From Candidatus Pacearchaeota archaeon (GTDB taxonomy: Archaea > Nanobdellota > Nanobdellia > Pacearchaeales > GW2011-AR1), in the NCBI GenBank assembly GCA_038869895.1, contig JAWCQE010000002.1, positions 73,034 to 105,033 of the forward strand: a stretch of DNA of 32,000 nucleotides, written 5' to 3'. This document shows positions 2,475-31,181 of the stretch, piece by piece. The notes under the pieces were generated by a model. The model ran no database searches, was not told the origin of the DNA, and worked only from the letters and a program-made list of their open reading frames with translations. Within the stretch, counting starts at the first letter, position 1, and each line of letters begins with the position of its first letter. The position numbers and the translations under genes are program-made.

Positions 2475-3209
2475 ATGGCATTAGAATTAAATGCAACACG
2501 AGAACCATACAGAGAATTTTACGGCAAAAATGTATGGCAGATGCCGGAGTTAATAGCTGACGGCAGAGTTCCTATGTCTGTTGCTGGATTAATGCAAAGA
2601 CGACTTGATGTTAGAAATTCTGATGCTGATGTTAAAAGTTCTTACATGGACAATTATTTTGACACAGGAGATGCAGTTTTATATCACCCAGACGGCAGAG
2701 TAAAAATAGTTCTTGATTCTCAAACTTTGAGAGAAATGACACCAGATACTCAAAGAGTTGGTGGAGCATTACTTTTGGGCGAAGATGTTTATGATGCTTT
2801 GCAAGGTGAAGAATTCAAGAAAGGAAAACTTGGAAAAGTAGATGAACGACTTACAAAAGAACAAGCTAAGGCTCATCCAGTTTGGAAAGTTTTAGCAAGA
2901 GACCAAGCATTACTTGATGATTATGCTGATTGTATTTTTGCAGAAGGCAAACAAAGATTTAATGATGATAATGCGATGGGTGTATTCCTAGATTCTGCTG
3001 GAGATAAGCCTAAATTGAGGGCTTGGTGTGTCTGCAGGCTTGGGCTCAGGTCTGACGCCTCTGGCGGGGACAGCCTCGTCAGTGATCATGGTCGTTTCGT
3101 CGGTATAGCGCCGGAGGCACTAAGATTTGATAGCGCATTAAAAGGTTTGGAAGCAACAGTTCGACCTGAATTGCTAGAGCCATTTAGAGAATTTAGAAAG
3201 AAACTTTAA
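2475..3209 (+). CDS. Hypothetical protein with a DGR-type variable C-terminus (candidate DGR target protein)
   Basis: 244-aa ORF, visibly GC-richer than its neighbours. Its 3' end (RAWCVCRLGLRSDASGGDSLVSDHGRFVGI) is repeated downstream in an A-rich form. Confidence 0.7.
   Translation: MALELNATREPYREFYGKNVWQMPELIADGRVPMSVAGLMQRRLDVRNSDADVKSSYMDNYFDTGDAVLYHPDGRVKIVLDSQTLREMTPDTQRVGGALLLGEDVYDALQGEEFKKGKLGKVDERLTKEQAKAHPVWKVLARDQALLDDYADCIFAEGKQRFNDDNAMGVFLDSAGDKPKLRAWCVCRLGLRSDASGGDSLVSDHGRFVGIAPEALRFDSALKGLEATVRPELLEPFREFRKKL
3019..3109 (+). repeat. DGR-like variable repeat (VR) inside 2475..3209
   Basis: Ungapped 91-nt hand alignment to 3393..3483 gives 69 identities. Of the 22 mismatches, 14 lie where the other copy has A. 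This copy has 10 A and the other has 22. Confidence 0.6.
3108..3120 (+). other. Imperfect hairpin GCGCC-GGA-GGCAC immediately 3' of the VR
   Basis: Stem with one mismatch. Nearly the same 14-mer (AGYGCCGRAGGCAC) follows the VR-like region of the 13615..14820 gene but in a different reading frame. It is absent after the 3393..3483 copy. Confidence 0.45.
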
Positions 3210-3392
3210 TTCTGAAAACGTTTTTATACTTAAATTATTATTAATATTAGTCCTGGCAGCCGAAAGGAAACTTTTGAGAAGCTGGGTTATATGCACTTCC
3301 ATGACGGCAACTTTGTTGTCATAAAATACAGCCATAACACCAAATGTTGTGAAATGGCGGTGATAAGTTTAGAGTGGAAGGGCTATGCTTTC

Positions 3393-3483
3393 GGGCTTGG
3401 TATGTCAACAGGCTTGAGAACAGGTCTATCGTTGTTGGCAGGTACGACCTCGACAATGACAATGGTCGTTTCGTCGGAATAAC
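3393..3483 (+). repeat. A-rich second copy of the 3019..3109 repeat; candidate DGR template repeat (TR) or degenerate second VR
   Basis: Only short overlapping ORFs cover it. In the VR frame it reads AWYVNRLENRSIVVGRYDLDNDNGRFVGI with AAC/AAT codons. It shares an A-free 15-nt 3' block, TGGTCGTTTCGTCGG, with the VR and lacks the downstream hairpin. Confidence 0.5.
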
Positions 3484-5969: not shown

Positions 5970-6932
5970 ATGATGATAAAAAATTCTTCAAAATATTACG
6001 ACTTTATAATTTTAGGAGCAGGAGGGGTTGGATTGGCAGCTGGAATGTATGCGGCACGTTTAGGTTTAAAAACTTTAATTTTAGGTTATAGTCATGGAAG
6101 TGAATTACCAATAGGAGGAGTTATAACAACAACCCATATTGTTGAAAATTATCCCGGGTTTGTAAAATTAAGTGGAACAGAACTTGCAAAAAAACTTGAA
6201 GAACATACAAGAAGCTATGAATTAGTTGATATAAAAGAAGAACTTGCACAAAATGTTAAGAAACATAATTTATATTTTGAAGTAAAAACAGAAAATTCAA
6301 ATTATATATCAAAAACAATTTTGTTTGCAACAGGAACAAAATGGAGAAAACTTCCGGAAACTATTAAAGGTTCGAGAGAATTTGAAAATAAAGGAGTAAC
6401 TTATTGTGCTTTATGTGATGGCCCTTTATTTAAAAACAAAATAGTTGCAGTTATTGGTGGAAGTGATTCTGCTGTAAAAGATGCACTTGTATTGTCAGAA
6501 CATGCAAAAAAAGTTTATATAATTTATAGGGGTGAAAAGATACATCCAGAACCAATTAATTTTAAGAGAGTAAACTCAAATAAAAAAATTGAAATTATAA
6601 CAAATACGAATATTTTAGAAATAAAAGGAGTGGATTTTGTAACATCCGTGATTTTAGATAGAAAATATAAAGGTTCAAACGAGTTAAAGCTTGATGGAAT
6701 TTTTGTTGCAATAGGACATGTAGCTTTATCAGATTTAGCAAAACCTCTTGGAGTTAAAATAAATAATAAAGGAGAAATAATGATAAATCATAAAACTTCT
6801 GAGACAAATATTCCGGGAGTTTATGCAGCAGGAGATGTAACAGACAAAGAATTTAAACAATTAATAACAGGGGTTGCAGATGGATGCACAGCAGCTTATT
6901 ATGCATATGAATATATAAATAAAAATGAATAA
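5970..6932 (+). CDS. trxB: Thioredoxin-disulfide reductase
   Basis: GAGGVGLAAG dinucleotide-binding motif, redox-active CALCDG, second GGSDSA motif, C-terminal AAGDV. Start moved to the first ATG (5970) instead of the TTG at 5955. Confidence 0.85.
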   Translation: MMIKNSSKYYDFIILGAGGVGLAAGMYAARLGLKTLILGYSHGSELPIGGVITTTHIVENYPGFVKLSGTELAKKLEEHTRSYELVDIKEELAQNVKKHNLYFEVKTENSNYISKTILFATGTKWRKLPETIKGSREFENKGVTYCALCDGPLFKNKIVAVIGGSDSAVKDALVLSEHAKKVYIIYRGEKIHPEPINFKRVNSNKKIEIITNTNILEIKGVDFVTSVILDRKYKGSNELKLDGIFVAIGHVALSDLAKPLGVKINNKGEIMINHKTSETNIPGVYAAGDVTDKEFKQLITGVADGCTAAYYAYEYINKNE

Positions 6933-7012: not shown

Positions 7013-8889
<1,877 letters not shown>

Positions 8890-12186: not shown

Positions 12187-13461
12187 ATGAAAGAATTAAA
12201 AGGGACTTTTTTAAGGGGATTGACATCTATATTATTATCTTTGCCTCCTTTGGCAACCAATGGTTGTGCATATCATTCTGTTTTTAGGAATAATGAAATG
12301 TCGAATGGAGCTCAATTACTTGAAGATACTAAATTAAATTATGAAAATTATGATGCAATGAGGGAGTATGTTATCGTTAATAATAGGGCTTATCCTAGGG
12401 GAGAAAGTCCTGTAGAATTTGATGAGGAGATAATACAGGTTTCACCTTTACCAGTAAAGAGGTTAAGAGAAATTAACGCCACTTACATAGAATCTCCTGA
12501 TGGAAATATAATAATGAACTATGCTTGTAGAATACCTCCTTCAGACCTTCAAGACTTGATTAAAGATTATCTGCCAGATGGAATCAAAGTTGAAGAATTT
12601 CCCACTAAAAACATGCTCATATTCAGTGGAAAAAAAGAGTCTTTTAATGAAAATAATTTAGGACATCTTTCTAATTTAATAAATCAATTTGACATTCCGC
12701 CAGAACAAATTCGTATCCGTTTAAGAATAGTAGAATATTTTGCGGATAATACCTATGACAGAGACTTATCATTAAATGTTTTGAAGGATTTGATGCCAGT
12801 AATTACATCTTCTCTCCCCAGTAGTTTAGATACAAATAAAAATCCCAATATAGGGACTGCTATACATCCTTTTAATCTTATTACTCTAAATACAAAAAGA
12901 CTTACTTTTGAGGGAGCAATAAAATTTTTAGATAGTTATGGAAAAACAAATACTCTTGCAGACTTGGATTTATTAACTTCAAATGGAAGACCTACTGAAT
13001 TGAAAAATCAAAGTTCAATTCCATATCCAGAAACGCAGATAGTTGGAAATAGTGTATTAGAAACTTTAAGATATAGAGATATTGGGTTGGACGCAAAATT
13101 AATTCCCTTTGCTAATGAGGAGGGATTTATTACAATAAAAGTTGAAAAAGCAGAGTCAGGAGAGCAAACAGGTTTTTCTGGAACAATTCAGAGGCCGATT
13201 TTTAGACTTGCGGATTTAATTACAGAAATAAATGTAATGAATGGATTAACTTATTTTGTAGCGTCTTCGAATTTTACAAGATATAAATCAGTAAATAGAG
13301 GAATCCCTGGAGTTAATAAAGTCCCAGTAATAGGAGATGTTACAACTTCTAGTTCAATTGAAAATATTCAGTCACAGCTTTTATATTTTATAGAAGCACG
13401 TGTAATGGATAGGAGGGATAGAATAACAGGAATTGTGCCATCAATTAGAAATAATCCTTAA
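12187..13461 (+). CDS. Secretin-family protein (GspD/PilQ/pIV-like), putative lipoprotein
   Basis: N-terminal signal ending LATNGC. C-terminal half shows the secretin-domain pattern: LLTSNGRPTELKNQSSIPYP, YRDIGLDAKLIPFANEEGFITIKVE, RPIFRLADLITEINVMNGLTYFVAS, IPGVNKVPVIGDV...QLLYFIEARV. Confidence 0.65.
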   Translation: MKELKGTFLRGLTSILLSLPPLATNGCAYHSVFRNNEMSNGAQLLEDTKLNYENYDAMREYVIVNNRAYPRGESPVEFDEEIIQVSPLPVKRLREINATYIESPDGNIIMNYACRIPPSDLQDLIKDYLPDGIKVEEFPTKNMLIFSGKKESFNENNLGHLSNLINQFDIPPEQIRIRLRIVEYFADNTYDRDLSLNVLKDLMPVITSSLPSSLDTNKNPNIGTAIHPFNLITLNTKRLTFEGAIKFLDSYGKTNTLADLDLLTSNGRPTELKNQSSIPYPETQIVGNSVLETLRYRDIGLDAKLIPFANEEGFITIKVEKAESGEQTGFSGTIQRPIFRLADLITEINVMNGLTYFVASSNFTRYKSVNRGIPGVNKVPVIGDVTTSSSIENIQSQLLYFIEARVMDRRDRITGIVPSIRNNP

Positions 13462-13614
13462 ATTACTTTTATTATTTTTAACATATCTCTTCTTGGTCTT
13501 ACCTTTCCTTGCTTTTCTTCAAGCAATTAACAATTTACCCATATTGTATGTTTTCTCATATAGATTTTTGTAGGTTTTCATTATAATCCTGACCATAGAC
13601 TACCATTAAGAACT

Positions 13615-14820
13615 TTAAAAATTTTCGCGCGTGCCTTCGGCACTAACGACTACTACCTGACCGTGCTCGTACGAATTACGCAAGCAGTCGTAATGCGAAT
13701 TCAAGTTTCGGTTACTATTGAGAAAAGCCCTCGCAAGGCCAAATTGCATAGTACATAATGTTCTATTTCCTCCACTACCTAAAATAGGTAATCCATTCTC
13801 ATCTCCCCTACTAAATCTTTGTTCATGATTACTTTTTACTAATTGTGGAGCATGATATATTTTTCCATCTTCTCTTAAATTAAATGCTAAACCATAATCA
13901 GAACTTTTACTTGCATCAGAACTAGGATTATCTAATTCAAGACTTGTTAGTGGGACCATAACAGGATATTCAATTTTTCCATCTCTTGCCTTAATTTGTT
14001 TAGCTAAATGTTGTGCTAGTTTAGCATTAACTTCACATTGAGTTCTTAAAATTAAGGCTCCATCGTTATAAGTAGAACTTAAATCTAATGTTCCTTGTTC
14101 TAAAATTCTCTCTAAATCTGCCAAGGTTGCTGTTCTAAATCCCCCACTACTTATAATTTGATTAACTAAAACAACCGCAAAAGAATTTGAACCTCTTACA
14201 ACACCATCATAAAAGGATAAAACATTCAAAGTTCCTATTCCGTTATATTCTGATTTAACTCTTTCTTGATATTCCTCTAAAACTTCTTTACCAAATTCTC
14301 CTCTTAAAAGATTAACTTTATGTTTTTGTCCGTTAATATCTAAATCTCTACCTTCAAATTTTGGGATTTCAAATTCTGGTCTAAGTAATCCGAGCCCTGT
14401 AACCTTGTATAATGCTTTTCTTTGCTCTCTTGGAACTTGCGATAATTCCACAATCTTACCAGTTAAGTAAGATTTAGCATCTGATTCTGGAATTCCCAAC
14501 ATTTCTGCTGCTGTGGTTAAATCTTTTTTATTCAGTCTTCTTGCCCTTAATTGTTCTTCTGAAATCTGGTCAACCAATCCTAAATCACTCATACGATAAT
14601 GTTTACCTTCCATTCTATCATCAAATTTTACAGACGCAGATGGTTCACCATCAATAGAATGATCTCCAAAATTACCGATAACTACTCCTTCACCATAATT
14701 CTGGTCTGCAAATCTACTATCTCTTCTAATTTTGATTCTCGCTCCTCTCCCCAATTCCTGTTCAGATAATCTTTTCAGAAGCCATTCTTTCAATTGTTCA
14801 TTCCATGTTTTTTCGGTCAT
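13615..14820 (-). CDS. Hypothetical protein with a DGR-VR-like C-terminus (second candidate DGR target)
   Basis: 401 aa. GC-richer than the flanks, and last gene of a tightly packed three-gene unit. The C-terminus RAFLNSNRNLNSHYDCLRNSYEHGQVVVV parallels the RAW...HGRFVGI end of the 2475 gene. Confidence 0.65.
   Translation of the reverse strand: MTEKTWNEQLKEWLLKRLSEQELGRGARIKIRRDSRFADQNYGEGVVIGNFGDHSIDGEPSASVKFDDRMEGKHYRMSDLGLVDQISEEQLRARRLNKKDLTTAAEMLGIPESDAKSYLTGKIVELSQVPREQRKALYKVTGLGLLRPEFEIPKFEGRDLDINGQKHKVNLLRGEFGKEVLEEYQERVKSEYNGIGTLNVLSFYDGVVRGSNSFAVVLVNQIISSGGFRTATLADLERILEQGTLDLSSTYNDGALILRTQCEVNAKLAQHLAKQIKARDGKIEYPVMVPLTSLELDNPSSDASKSSDYGLAFNLREDGKIYHAPQLVKSNHEQRFSRGDENGLPILGSGGNRTLCTMQFGLARAFLNSNRNLNSHYDCLRNSYEHGQVVVVSAEGTRENF
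13631..13643 (-). other. Perfect hairpin GTGCC-GAA-GGCAC 3' of the VR-like segment
   Basis: 5-bp GC-rich stem with a 3-nt loop inside the last codons of the gene. Homologous at nucleotide level to 3108..3120. Confidence 0.45.
13644..13731 (-). repeat. VR-like segment rich in AAY-derived codons
   Basis: Coding-strand codons are aat agt aac cga aac ttg aat tcg cat tac gac tgc ttg cgt aat tcg tac gag cac. Twelve of the 19 are NNY codons reachable from AAC/AAT by changes at A. No cognate copy was found in the window. Confidence 0.4.
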
Positions 14821-23641: not shown

Positions 23642-24082
23642 TTATTGAACTATAAAAGGCTTACTTAACAAATCACATATTTTATTACCTATTTTTGCGG
23701 CCGTTTCTACTCTACTCCCTGGACTAAGAAGACCAGAATTAAGTGTTACGTTTCTAGTTTCTCCTACCTTTATTGGTGTTTCACTTCCACTTTGAGAATA
23801 ATCAATTCCTCCGACAATGGTCCCATCTACATAAACAACAATTCCACTCAATTCATCGCTTCCAGAATCTCTGCGTATAAATACAGAAGAGGTTGTACTA
23901 TTAACAGATACCACTCTTAATTGAGTCTCTAAACATCCAGTAGAACTTCCAATATTTGAAAGATTGTTGCTGACAAAATTCTGAATAACAACCCAAACAA
24001 TTACAACAGCAGCAATTGCAAGAAGAATTAAAAGGACAGTAGTTACAACATCTGACACCGCTTTTTTATTGTTTAACTTCAT
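23642..24082 (-). CDS. Archaeal type IV pilin-like protein (class III signal peptide), paralogue A
   Basis: MKLNNKKAVSDVVTTVLLILLAIAAVVIVWVV matches the archaeal pilin/archaellin N-terminal domain. Two Cys in the C-terminal globular part. Confidence 0.75.
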   Translation of the reverse strand: MKLNNKKAVSDVVTTVLLILLAIAAVVIVWVVIQNFVSNNLSNIGSSTGCLETQLRVVSVNSTTSSVFIRRDSGSDELSGIVVYVDGTIVGGIDYSQSGSETPIKVGETRNVTLNSGLLSPGSRVETAAKIGNKICDLLSKPFIVQ

Positions 24083-24084
24083 TA
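23970..24084 (-). repeat. 115-bp perfect repeat, copy 1 (pilin 5' end plus 2 nt of leader)
   Basis: Identical base for base to 24568..24682 (offset 598). Identity ends abruptly at the codon after ...QNFV. Confidence 0.9.
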
Positions 24085-24245
24085 CATAATAATATAATCA
24101 ATCTTTTTAAATGTTTTTAATGTCAAACTTTTTTAATATTTTACGAAGTATACTTAGAATATAAAATCTATTTAAATAACCTTTAAATAAAAAGAATAGA
24201 TTTTATCATCTTTCATTTTAAAGGAAATACTCCTTTTGAAAAATT

Positions 24246-24680
24246 TTAAGATACTGCAACTGATTGGGCTTCTTGTATTCTACAACTTGTACCGTCACTT
24301 AATTCAAATGCGACATATACATCAACAAATTGGCCAGATTGTAAGGTGATAGGTGGTTGCATTTGTCCAGTAGTTGTGGATTCCGCAATTTTTATATTTG
24401 GATTTTGTACTGTTGCAGAAGATGTTCCTATTGAAGCTCTAATGACACCTATATCAACATTTCCAGAAGTTCTTCTTAAGGTTACATTTCCATTTGTTGT
24501 AACAGAAGTAACATCATACCTTGTTGATAAGCAGTCTGCAGAACCTGTGACTTCTTTTGAACCTTCTCTGACAAAATTCTGAATAACAACCCAAACAATT
24601 ACAACAGCAGCAATTGCAAGAAGAATTAAAAGGACAGTAGTTACAACATCTGACACCGCTTTTTTATTGTTTAACTTCAT
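24246..24680 (-). CDS. Archaeal type IV pilin-like protein (class III signal peptide), paralogue B
   Basis: The first 37 aa are identical to paralogue A. The C-terminal part is divergent but keeps the two-Cys layout. Confidence 0.75.
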   Translation of the reverse strand: MKLNNKKAVSDVVTTVLLILLAIAAVVIVWVVIQNFVREGSKEVTGSADCLSTRYDVTSVTTNGNVTLRRTSGNVDIGVIRASIGTSSATVQNPNIKIAESTTTGQMQPPITLQSGQFVDVYVAFELSDGTSCRIQEAQSVAVS

Positions 24681-24682
24681 TA
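24568..24682 (-). repeat. 115-bp perfect repeat, copy 2
   Basis: See 23970..24084. Confidence 0.9.
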
Positions 24683-24887
24683 TACCATTAATAAAATTAA
24701 CTTTATAAAGCTTTTGTTAAATTGTGTTGTTGTGTTAAATGCTAGTGTTTAACTAAAAATTAATTTGCCATTCAAAGCTTCATGCTTATCTACAAAATTA
24801 TAAAAATTTGTATTCCTTTGAATATAATATAATTCCCTTCAACAGAACCACGTAATTCTTTAAAATTTTAATTCTTCAAATTCATAT

Positions 24888-30986: not shown

Positions 30987-31127
30987 AACTGAAAACCACC
31001 TGCGGGTTTTCTATCCTGCAACCAATCGAATCCGATATGAGCCTGCTCGGATTCGAACTGAAAACCACCTGCGGGTTTTCTATCCTGCAACCAATCGAAT
31101 CCGATATGAGCCTGCTCGGATTCGAAC
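30987..31127. repeat. 69-bp direct tandem repeat (2 copies plus 3 nt) duplicating the 3' 21 nt of tRNA-Ile and its 48-nt trailer
   Basis: 30987-31055 equals 31056-31124. The tRNA 3' segment TGAGCCTGCTCGGATTCGAAC occurs at 31038-31058 and 31107-31127. Confidence 0.9.
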
Positions 31128-31181
31128 CGAGGACCCCTACCTTATCAGAGTAGTGCTCTAACCTGGCTGAGCTACAGGCTC
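31107..31181 (-). tRNA. tRNA-Ile (anticodon GAU)
   Basis: Reverse complement GAGCCTG...CTACT-CTGATAA-GGTAG...CTCGG-TTCGAAT-CCGAG-CAGGCTC-A. Perfect 7-bp acceptor stem. Confidence 0.9.

Follow-up and report, generated by a model that had tools for sequence, protein, structure and literature searches.

In diversity-generating retroelements (DGRs) a reverse transcriptase (RT) copies the RNA of a template repeat (TR) with random changes at adenines, and the resulting cDNA overwrites the variable region (VR) of a target gene. DGRs are abundant in DPANN archaea, many VR-bearing genes stand alone, and since 2015 the question for such archaeal orphan targets has been whether they are fossils or remote targets. 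This question is raised again by a gene for a 401-aa protein in a Pacearchaeota (DPANN) genome, located in a stretch of 32,000 nt (hereafter the window; features in Table 1) that also carries archaeal hallmark genes (RpoK, S19e, L31e, Kae1 and type-IV-pilin-like genes). A preliminary description of this DNA had singled out the C-terminus of the protein as a second candidate variable region, besides that of the gene at 2475. Judged by its sequence and that of its relatives, this C-terminal segment (VR2) is the VR of a DGR target gene, and its locus is a partial DGR in the sense of Paul et al. (2015), in a new family member and a new genome. We consider VR2 a real DGR variable region and probably a fossil, that is, a frozen relic of an element that has lost its donor half.

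Table 1. Coordinates of the features of the VR2 locus and of the other DGR of the window
Feature	Position	Strand	Description
Target gene	13615..14820	minus	401 aa; intact ORF, ends ...GLARAFLNSNRNLNSHYDCLRNSYEHGQVVVVSAEGTRENF and stop
VR2	13653..13738	minus	86 nt, CCTTGCGAGG...GGTCAGGTAG; aligns to L006 VR 1612-1697 and TR 2824-2909
Variable-codon core	13663..13719	minus	12 AAY-derived codons amid fixed Leu/Ser/Arg scaffold codons
IMH-like invariant VR2 3' end	13644..13662	minus	GGTCAGGTAGTAGTCGTTA, encodes GQVVVV
Hairpin GTGCC-GAA-GGCAC	13631..13643	minus	Inside coding sequence, codons SAEG; perfect stem
Stop codon TAA (13615-13617) and 4 nt AGTT	13611..13617	minus	Putative deletion junction
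Post-TR spacer homologue	13582..13610	minus	CTTAATGGTAGTCTATGGTCAGGATTATA; aligned to L006 and ten other complete loci
RT pseudogene stub	13459..13581	minus	MKTYKNLYEKTYNMGKLLIA, stop, RKARKGKTKKRYV...; 41 codons
First DGR of the window	2475-3481	plus	Target 2475..3209, VR1 3019-3107, TR1 3393-3481
RT-16 RNA (RF03019)	3252-3391	plus	Ends 1 nt before TR1

The compositional features that had drawn attention to the segment are borne out. Its GC content (47.5% in 13631-13731) exceeds that of the target gene (34.4%) and of the window (29.7%), and the GC peak of the gene coincides with its final ~40 codons. The segment is one of only ten stretches of the window with at least 46% GC (100-nt windows); VR1 and TR1 are among the others, as are three of the four tRNA genes identified with Rfam. 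In a scan of 39 ORFs (8,801 codons) by 19-codon windows for the set AAY/AGY/CAY/TAY/GAY/TGY, which has a background frequency of 0.19 in these ORFs, 12 such codons out of 19 were reached only once, from codon 368 of the target gene onwards; 10-11 of 19 occurred in three other ORFs. All the codons for N/S/H/Y/D/C that the preliminary description had listed are there (the core reads AAT AGT AAC CGA AAC TTG AAT TCG CAT TAC in codons 1-10 and GAC TGC TTG CGT AAT TCG TAC GAG CAC in codons 11-19), and, as it had proposed, the 12 can each arise from AAY through substitutions confined to the two A positions. The core has no stop codon.

A protein search returned 25 homologues, which make up a DPANN-archaeal family without any Pfam domain; most are of ~250-300 aa and match residues ~150-401 of the query. 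Residues ~150-395 constitute the conserved domain, with the VR at its C-terminus, and the N-terminal 150 residues are common only to the closest homologue (P0002, 62% identical). All 25 homologues share the scaffold GLSRLxLxxxLxLxSxxxxLxxSxxxGRVVVVSAEGT, in which the L/S/G positions are nearly invariant and the x columns hypervariable (D/G/Y/S/N/C/A-like); it is on these x columns that the N/S/H/Y/D/C codons of VR2 sit. The comparison of relatives suggested at the outset did reveal variation confined to the segment: the differences between near-identical members of the same 90% cluster fall inside the VR block in 8 of 8 cases for P0012/P0036, 12 of 12 for P0019/P0039 and 11 of 12 for P0015/P0038 (8 of 14 for P0005/P0026).

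Complete elements found in relatives share a common layout, in which the target (with VR, IMH and a GRA-loop hairpin) is followed by an RT-16 RNA, the TR, a spacer of ~35 nt and the RT. In locus L005, for example, the VR block (6630-6715) recurs 423 nt downstream (7053-7138), all 12 mismatches between VR and TR fall at adenines of the downstream copy, and the RT gene begins 42 nt further. JGI metagenome contigs contributed 80 additional loci; the VR was located in 52 of them, and 17 of the 52 hold a second copy of the block. Adenine-specific mismatches between TR and VR amount to 17/17, 25/25, 12/12, 12/12, 17/17, 9/9, 6/6, 4/4, 15/16, 11/12, 11/12 and 15/17 in the clear cases, all of which also carry a DGR-type RT, and no adenine bias is seen in two of the 17 repeat loci, L160 (5/13) and L170 (1/11). 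VR2 aligns column for column with the TR-paired VRs of L005, L006, L007 and others, which upholds its identification as a DGR-type VR.

Among JGI loci with at least 3 kb of downstream sequence ~8 are complete and ~14 are without TR and RT within 4 kb; orphan targets make up about two thirds of the family loci with such a flank. In the orphan members L157, L179 and L189 a template-type end, GG[CT]AGAATA[GA], stands where the VR-type GGGTAG would be, and the hairpin is gone; they may be never-diversified or long-dead paralogues.

The RT-16 RNA (RF03019) was detected in 16 of the 20 loci scanned with Rfam (L004-L007, L137, L140, L142, L146, L153, L159, L167, L168, L175, L184, L188 and L210); three orphan loci do not have it. 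Both it and the TR could be placed in 15 loci. In 14 of these it ends at most 6 nt from the TR start, and in L167 the distance is 37 nt. To our knowledge, this Rfam motif is without an assigned function and known only as a neighbour of RT genes; from the present comparison it would seem to be the 5' portion of the template RNA in archaeal DGRs.

On the acceptor side, all parts (VR2, IMH-like stretch and GAA-loop hairpin) are present in the window. The IMH-like end of VR2, GGTCAGGTAG, differs by one base from the family VR consensus GGTCGGGTAG, whose TR counterpart is GGTC(A/G)AATAG. The hairpin, which is found in the predicted MFE fold, lies 19 nt past the Gly codon of GRVVVV (GQVVVV here), as in most family members. 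Its loop is GAA or GGA throughout the family and its stems covary across loci, with at least six stem sequences staying paired (GCGCC/GGCGC, GTGCC/GGCAC, GTGGC/GCCAC, CCGAC/GTCGG, ATGCC/GGCAT and CTGGC/GCCAG). GRA-loop hairpins within target genes have been described in nanoarchaeal DGRs (Paul et al. 2015, PMC4372165), and the hairpin of the window matches them. An acceptor in this state (perfect hairpin, IMH one base off) fits continued use as well as recent decay.

The donor side is best seen against the syntenic closest homologue, L006. There the target is 62% identical to the 401-aa protein and the product of the upstream 137-aa gene is 79% identical to its counterpart in the window, and the target is followed by a 289-aa gene, an RT-16 RNA (2686-2824), the TR (2824-2909), a 33-nt spacer and the start of an RT. 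The L006 TR has AAT or AAC at seven of the 12 positions that match variable codons of VR2, which today shows AAY at five of its ~12. VR and TR of L006 are 89.5% identical, and six of their nine mismatches are at TR adenines. The RT of L006 (2942-3145), as also that of L136, is only a stub of ~50 RT-like codons that passes into non-coding DNA. The similarity of the VR/TR pair of L006 despite this stub hints at an RT acting in trans in the sub-lineage; the alternative would be that the RT genes of L006 and the window were truncated independently.

At the corresponding position of the window there is neither RT-16 RNA nor TR, and Rfam gave no RT-16 signal in 13200-14000 even at E≤10. Instead, 4 nt after the stop codon of the target follows CTTAATGGTAGTCTATGGTCAGGATTATA-ATGAAAACCTACAAAAATC, homologous to the spacer and the RT start of complete loci (window 13610-13481 vs L006 2910-3042: 72% identity over 134 nt, E 5e-13, blastn). 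The stub matches residues 1-41 only of the RT of the complete locus L007 (tblastn), with BLASTP E-values of 2e-14 to the L006 stub and 8e-08 to the L005 RT. Its codon 21 (13519-13521), which is TGG in L006 and a Trp codon in the aligned RTs, is TGA in the window, and the stub shares its last 3 nt with a convergent gene (12187..13461). On the target side of the junction TAA AGT T matches GAG AGT T of L004, where the frame continues as GAG AGT TAT; the protein of the window ends in SAEGTRENF, whereas L004 reads SAEGTRENFESYVAQLQ... and runs on for ~35 aa, and the 401-aa protein is without the ~35-residue helical tail found in many relatives.

These observations are consistent with the following scenario, in which we infer the order of events. 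Adenine-targeted copying from TR to VR would have created the N/S/H/Y/D/C codons of VR2. A deletion that began directly behind the ENF codons and ran up to the TR's 3' edge would have removed the target's C-terminal tail together with the RT-16 RNA and the TR; on the right it would have stopped at, or within a few nt of, the expected TR 3' end. The RT gene would have been separately truncated to 41 codons and would also have acquired its nonsense mutation. The leftover would be an intact ORF with a presumably inactive VR, frozen in its last diversified state, and with acceptor signals that are still readable. A simple VR x TR crossover as the mechanism of the deletion is ruled out by the 40 nt of VR-specific 3' flank kept before the junction, made up of the remainder of the IMH-like stretch, then the hairpin and the ENF codons.

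No replacement for the lost parts was found nearby. As the preliminary description had maintained, the variable core is without nucleotide similarity to VR1/TR1, from which no alignment was obtained by ungapped, blastn-short or adenine-tolerant scans; TR1 is thereby rejected as a template for VR2. VR2 belongs to a VR/TR family other than that of the 2475 gene and would require a template of its own, which, again as had been said of the window, is not there: no second sequence in the window matches the VR2 segment at 50% or more when aligned without gaps over 115 nt, and a VR2-like template was not found in its 32 kb plus ~16 kb of flank (blastn-short and adenine-tolerant scan). An RVT_1 gene is likewise missing from the window and from ~10 kb to its left and ~5.7 kb to its right. 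A search with a complete family RT gave 6,907 matches at E≤1e-20, and none of the 120 listed was attributable to this genome.

That the segment is still variable in this organism, as its first description implied, is not supported: the TR and RT-16 RNA are deleted in cis, the RT is a 41-codon stub, and the VR2 locus is 100% identical in three further assemblies (four in all). The exact protein is annotated in two Candidatus Pacearchaeota NCBI MAGs (GCA_038868955.1 and the one with MEM3122124.1) and present in two Logan assemblies, and its 90% cluster consists of one sequence under two NCBI accessions. As these are four consensus assemblies, apparently of one population, their identity is weak evidence against microdiversity. 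The scar left in cis, a spacer with a nonsense-bearing RT stub, on the other hand, argues for the fossil route at the VR2 locus.

The alternative that survives best, which we regard as possible if unlikely, is that VR2 is still diversified in trans. A TR with its RT-16 RNA and an intact RT would then reside elsewhere in the genome, and the cis module, being redundant, would have been lost. Such a reading would account for the intact hairpin and IMH-like element, agrees with orphan targets being the majority in the family, and has precedents in remote DGR targets that have been documented or proposed (PMC4372165, PMC5758913). L006, moreover, holds its A-biased, ~90%-identical VR/TR pair beside a stub RT, and VR1/TR1 of the window is likewise without an RT within ~10 kb. 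However, the cognate template of L006 is in cis, exactly where the window has its deletion, so that a second template copy would be needed, and ~48 kb contain none; no VR variants occur in the 90% cluster of the protein or in the four assemblies, and eight of the 21 VR1/TR1 mismatches are not at adenines, a pattern that speaks against recent activity of an RT in this genome. A more far-reaching form of the same idea, to which we give a rather low probability, would keep VR2 active as an acceptor: several RT-less modules of a distributed DGR network in the archaeon would be served by one remote RT, and the template RNA recognised by the RT would include the spacer and the stub, with RT-16 as a 5' handle. 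The stub region of the window and L006 is 72% identical at the nucleotide level where the target proteins are only 62% identical; if such a network existed, the post-TR spacer and the RT 5' stub would have been kept as part of the template RNA.

It is very improbable that the missing TR and RT represent an assembly artefact or a minority strain variant, with the VR/TR repeat causing the assembler to skip the interval. Repeats of this kind can break or collapse metagenome assemblies, and the Logan contigs of SRR27730039 do stop on either side of VR1/TR1 (window ~2424 and ~3921), but the junction at VR2 (AGTT followed by CTTAATGG) is outside VR/TR-homologous sequence, 40 nt beyond the IMH, where repeat collapse would not make it; the arrangement is also base-for-base equal in the three further assemblies, and the RT stub has a nonsense mutation of its own and adjoins a convergent gene. 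The notion of an ordinary Asn/Ser/Tyr-rich, GC-richer C-terminus that owes nothing to a retroelement and is a product of chance or of ordinary selection acting on a surface loop could appeal to a window without template and to the 10-11 similar codons in three other ORFs, but it has a nearly negligible probability and is effectively refuted by the positional homology to VRs with A-only TR mismatches, the conserved hairpin at a fixed offset, and the post-TR spacer and RT start immediately downstream. Taken together, these last two explanations deserve little credence, and VR2 as a probable fossil of a real DGR is the reading that we retain.

The AF2 model of residues 150-401 has a pLDDT of 92; residues 1-150, which are predicted with lower confidence, contain helices and a stretch of beta-strand. 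Foldseek searches of PDB and BFVD with the model of the C-terminal domain returned nothing at E≤0.001 (best PDB E 0.13); the weak top matches were C-type lectin domains, Mtd and phage tail-collar fibres, with SP-A, CD23, MBP-C and Mincle among them. The full-length model gave weak matches only (all E>0.01), several of them to small beta-barrel proteins, and a PDB sequence search with the family profile gave no match at E≤1. Based on this model, it is plausible that the C-terminal domain is a divergent CLec fold like that of AvpA.

The other DGR of the window has features of its own. Its VR1 and TR1 differ by 21 mismatches, 13 of which are at TR adenines, the hairpin is imperfect (a C-A mismatch), and neither the window nor the ~10 kb to its left has an RT for it. 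Decay may be under way in this element too; alternatively, an older template may have been the source of VR1. The layout parallel between the two target genes, pointed out in the preliminary description, stands with respect to architecture (variable block, Gly, hydrophobic strand and GRA-loop hairpin) and fails in profile comparison: hhalign gave no significant match, so homology of the VR2 family to the 2475 protein is not demonstrable. A PDB search with the 244-aa protein yielded insignificant matches only and no DGR variable protein. The repeat itself, or heterogeneity among the reads at VR1, could be the reason why the SRR27730039 contigs end on both sides of VR1/TR1; the VR2 locus is assembled without a break in every data set.

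Several other neighbouring features deserve mention. The gene convergent with the RT stub (12187-13461, plus strand) encodes a 424-aa protein with a bacterial secretin domain (PF00263, E 4.7e-16), which is unusual in an organism without an outer membrane, and near it lie bacterial-type GroEL/GroES genes (7013-8889). Two adjacent paralogous type-IV-pilin-like genes at 23642-24715 (146 and 144 aa) share identical N-terminal 35 residues and a 148-nt repeat of 91% identity, and their C-terminal domains are divergent. A perfect tandem duplication of a 69-nt unit at 30987-31124, found in two assemblies, reaches with its second copy into the 3' end of a tRNA gene (31107-31181, minus strand) and could be an integration-site footprint.

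With respect to known systems, the canonical DGR of the Bordetella phage BPP-1 has the order mtd-avd-TR-brt. Relatives of the VR2 gene agree with it in the A-specific transfer from TR to VR, in the AAY codons at variable positions and in a 3'-terminal VR in the target gene, with IMH and hairpin behind it. Unlike in BPP-1, the hairpin is inside the ORF and has a 3-nt loop, no Avd-like gene was found in the gene tables of five family loci, and a structured RNA (Rfam RT-16) is situated upstream of the TR; at the VR2 locus TR and RT are, in addition, missing. BPP-1 has an RT-10 motif between TR and brt (PMC5737381).

AvpA, an archaeal DGR variable protein, adopts a divergent C-type lectin fold (Handa et al. 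2016, PMC5006420). The VR2 family shares with it a short VR (~27 residues, ~12 of them variable) and an IMH-encoded invariant beta-strand (RFxGV in AvpA, GRVVVV in the family) that is followed by a hairpin-bearing tail. On the other hand, the VR2 protein belongs to a separate family with no PDB sequence match at E≤1, and the AvpA motif looks closer in the other target of the window, 2475..3209 (...HGRFVGI). Remote and multiple DGR targets are exemplified by the TvpA paralogues of Treponema denticola (Wu et al. 2018, PMC5758913). The VR2 gene is similarly without a TR or RT of its own; however, the TR of the TvpA paralogues is known elsewhere in the genome, whereas VR2 has none in ~48 kb and its cis TR position is deleted.

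The nearest precedents are the partial DGRs (a target with VR and cis elements and without RT or TR) of the DUSEL4 nanoarchaea (Paul et al. 2015, PMC4372165). The IMH of the VR2 family reads GGTCGGGTAG in the VR and GGTCAAATAG in the TR, as compared with TGGGGT/TGGAAT in that study. Like the DUSEL4 targets, the VR2 protein is DPANN-archaeal and domain-less, with a VR near the C-terminus and a GRA-loop hairpin in the coding sequence, and the absence of an adjacent TR or RT poses the same choice between fossil and remote target. Unlike them, the VR2 locus holds a scar, the post-TR spacer and the 41-codon RT stub with its nonsense codon. Two family members without TR or RT (P0010 and P0017) are both in the archaeal assembly GCA_000405225.1, which may be one of the DUSEL4 single-cell genomes.

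DGR specialists would hardly be surprised by a further orphan target, and the value of the present case is mainly for annotation and for the counting of active versus decayed elements. A Pfam-less protein family can now be flagged as a DGR target family, and the Rfam motif RT-16 is linked to the 5' edge of the TR. Overall, for the archaeal orphan targets the VR2 locus offers a concrete and datable path by which an orphan may come about, namely deletion of the RT-16 RNA and TR together with truncation of the RT, with the scar left in place.
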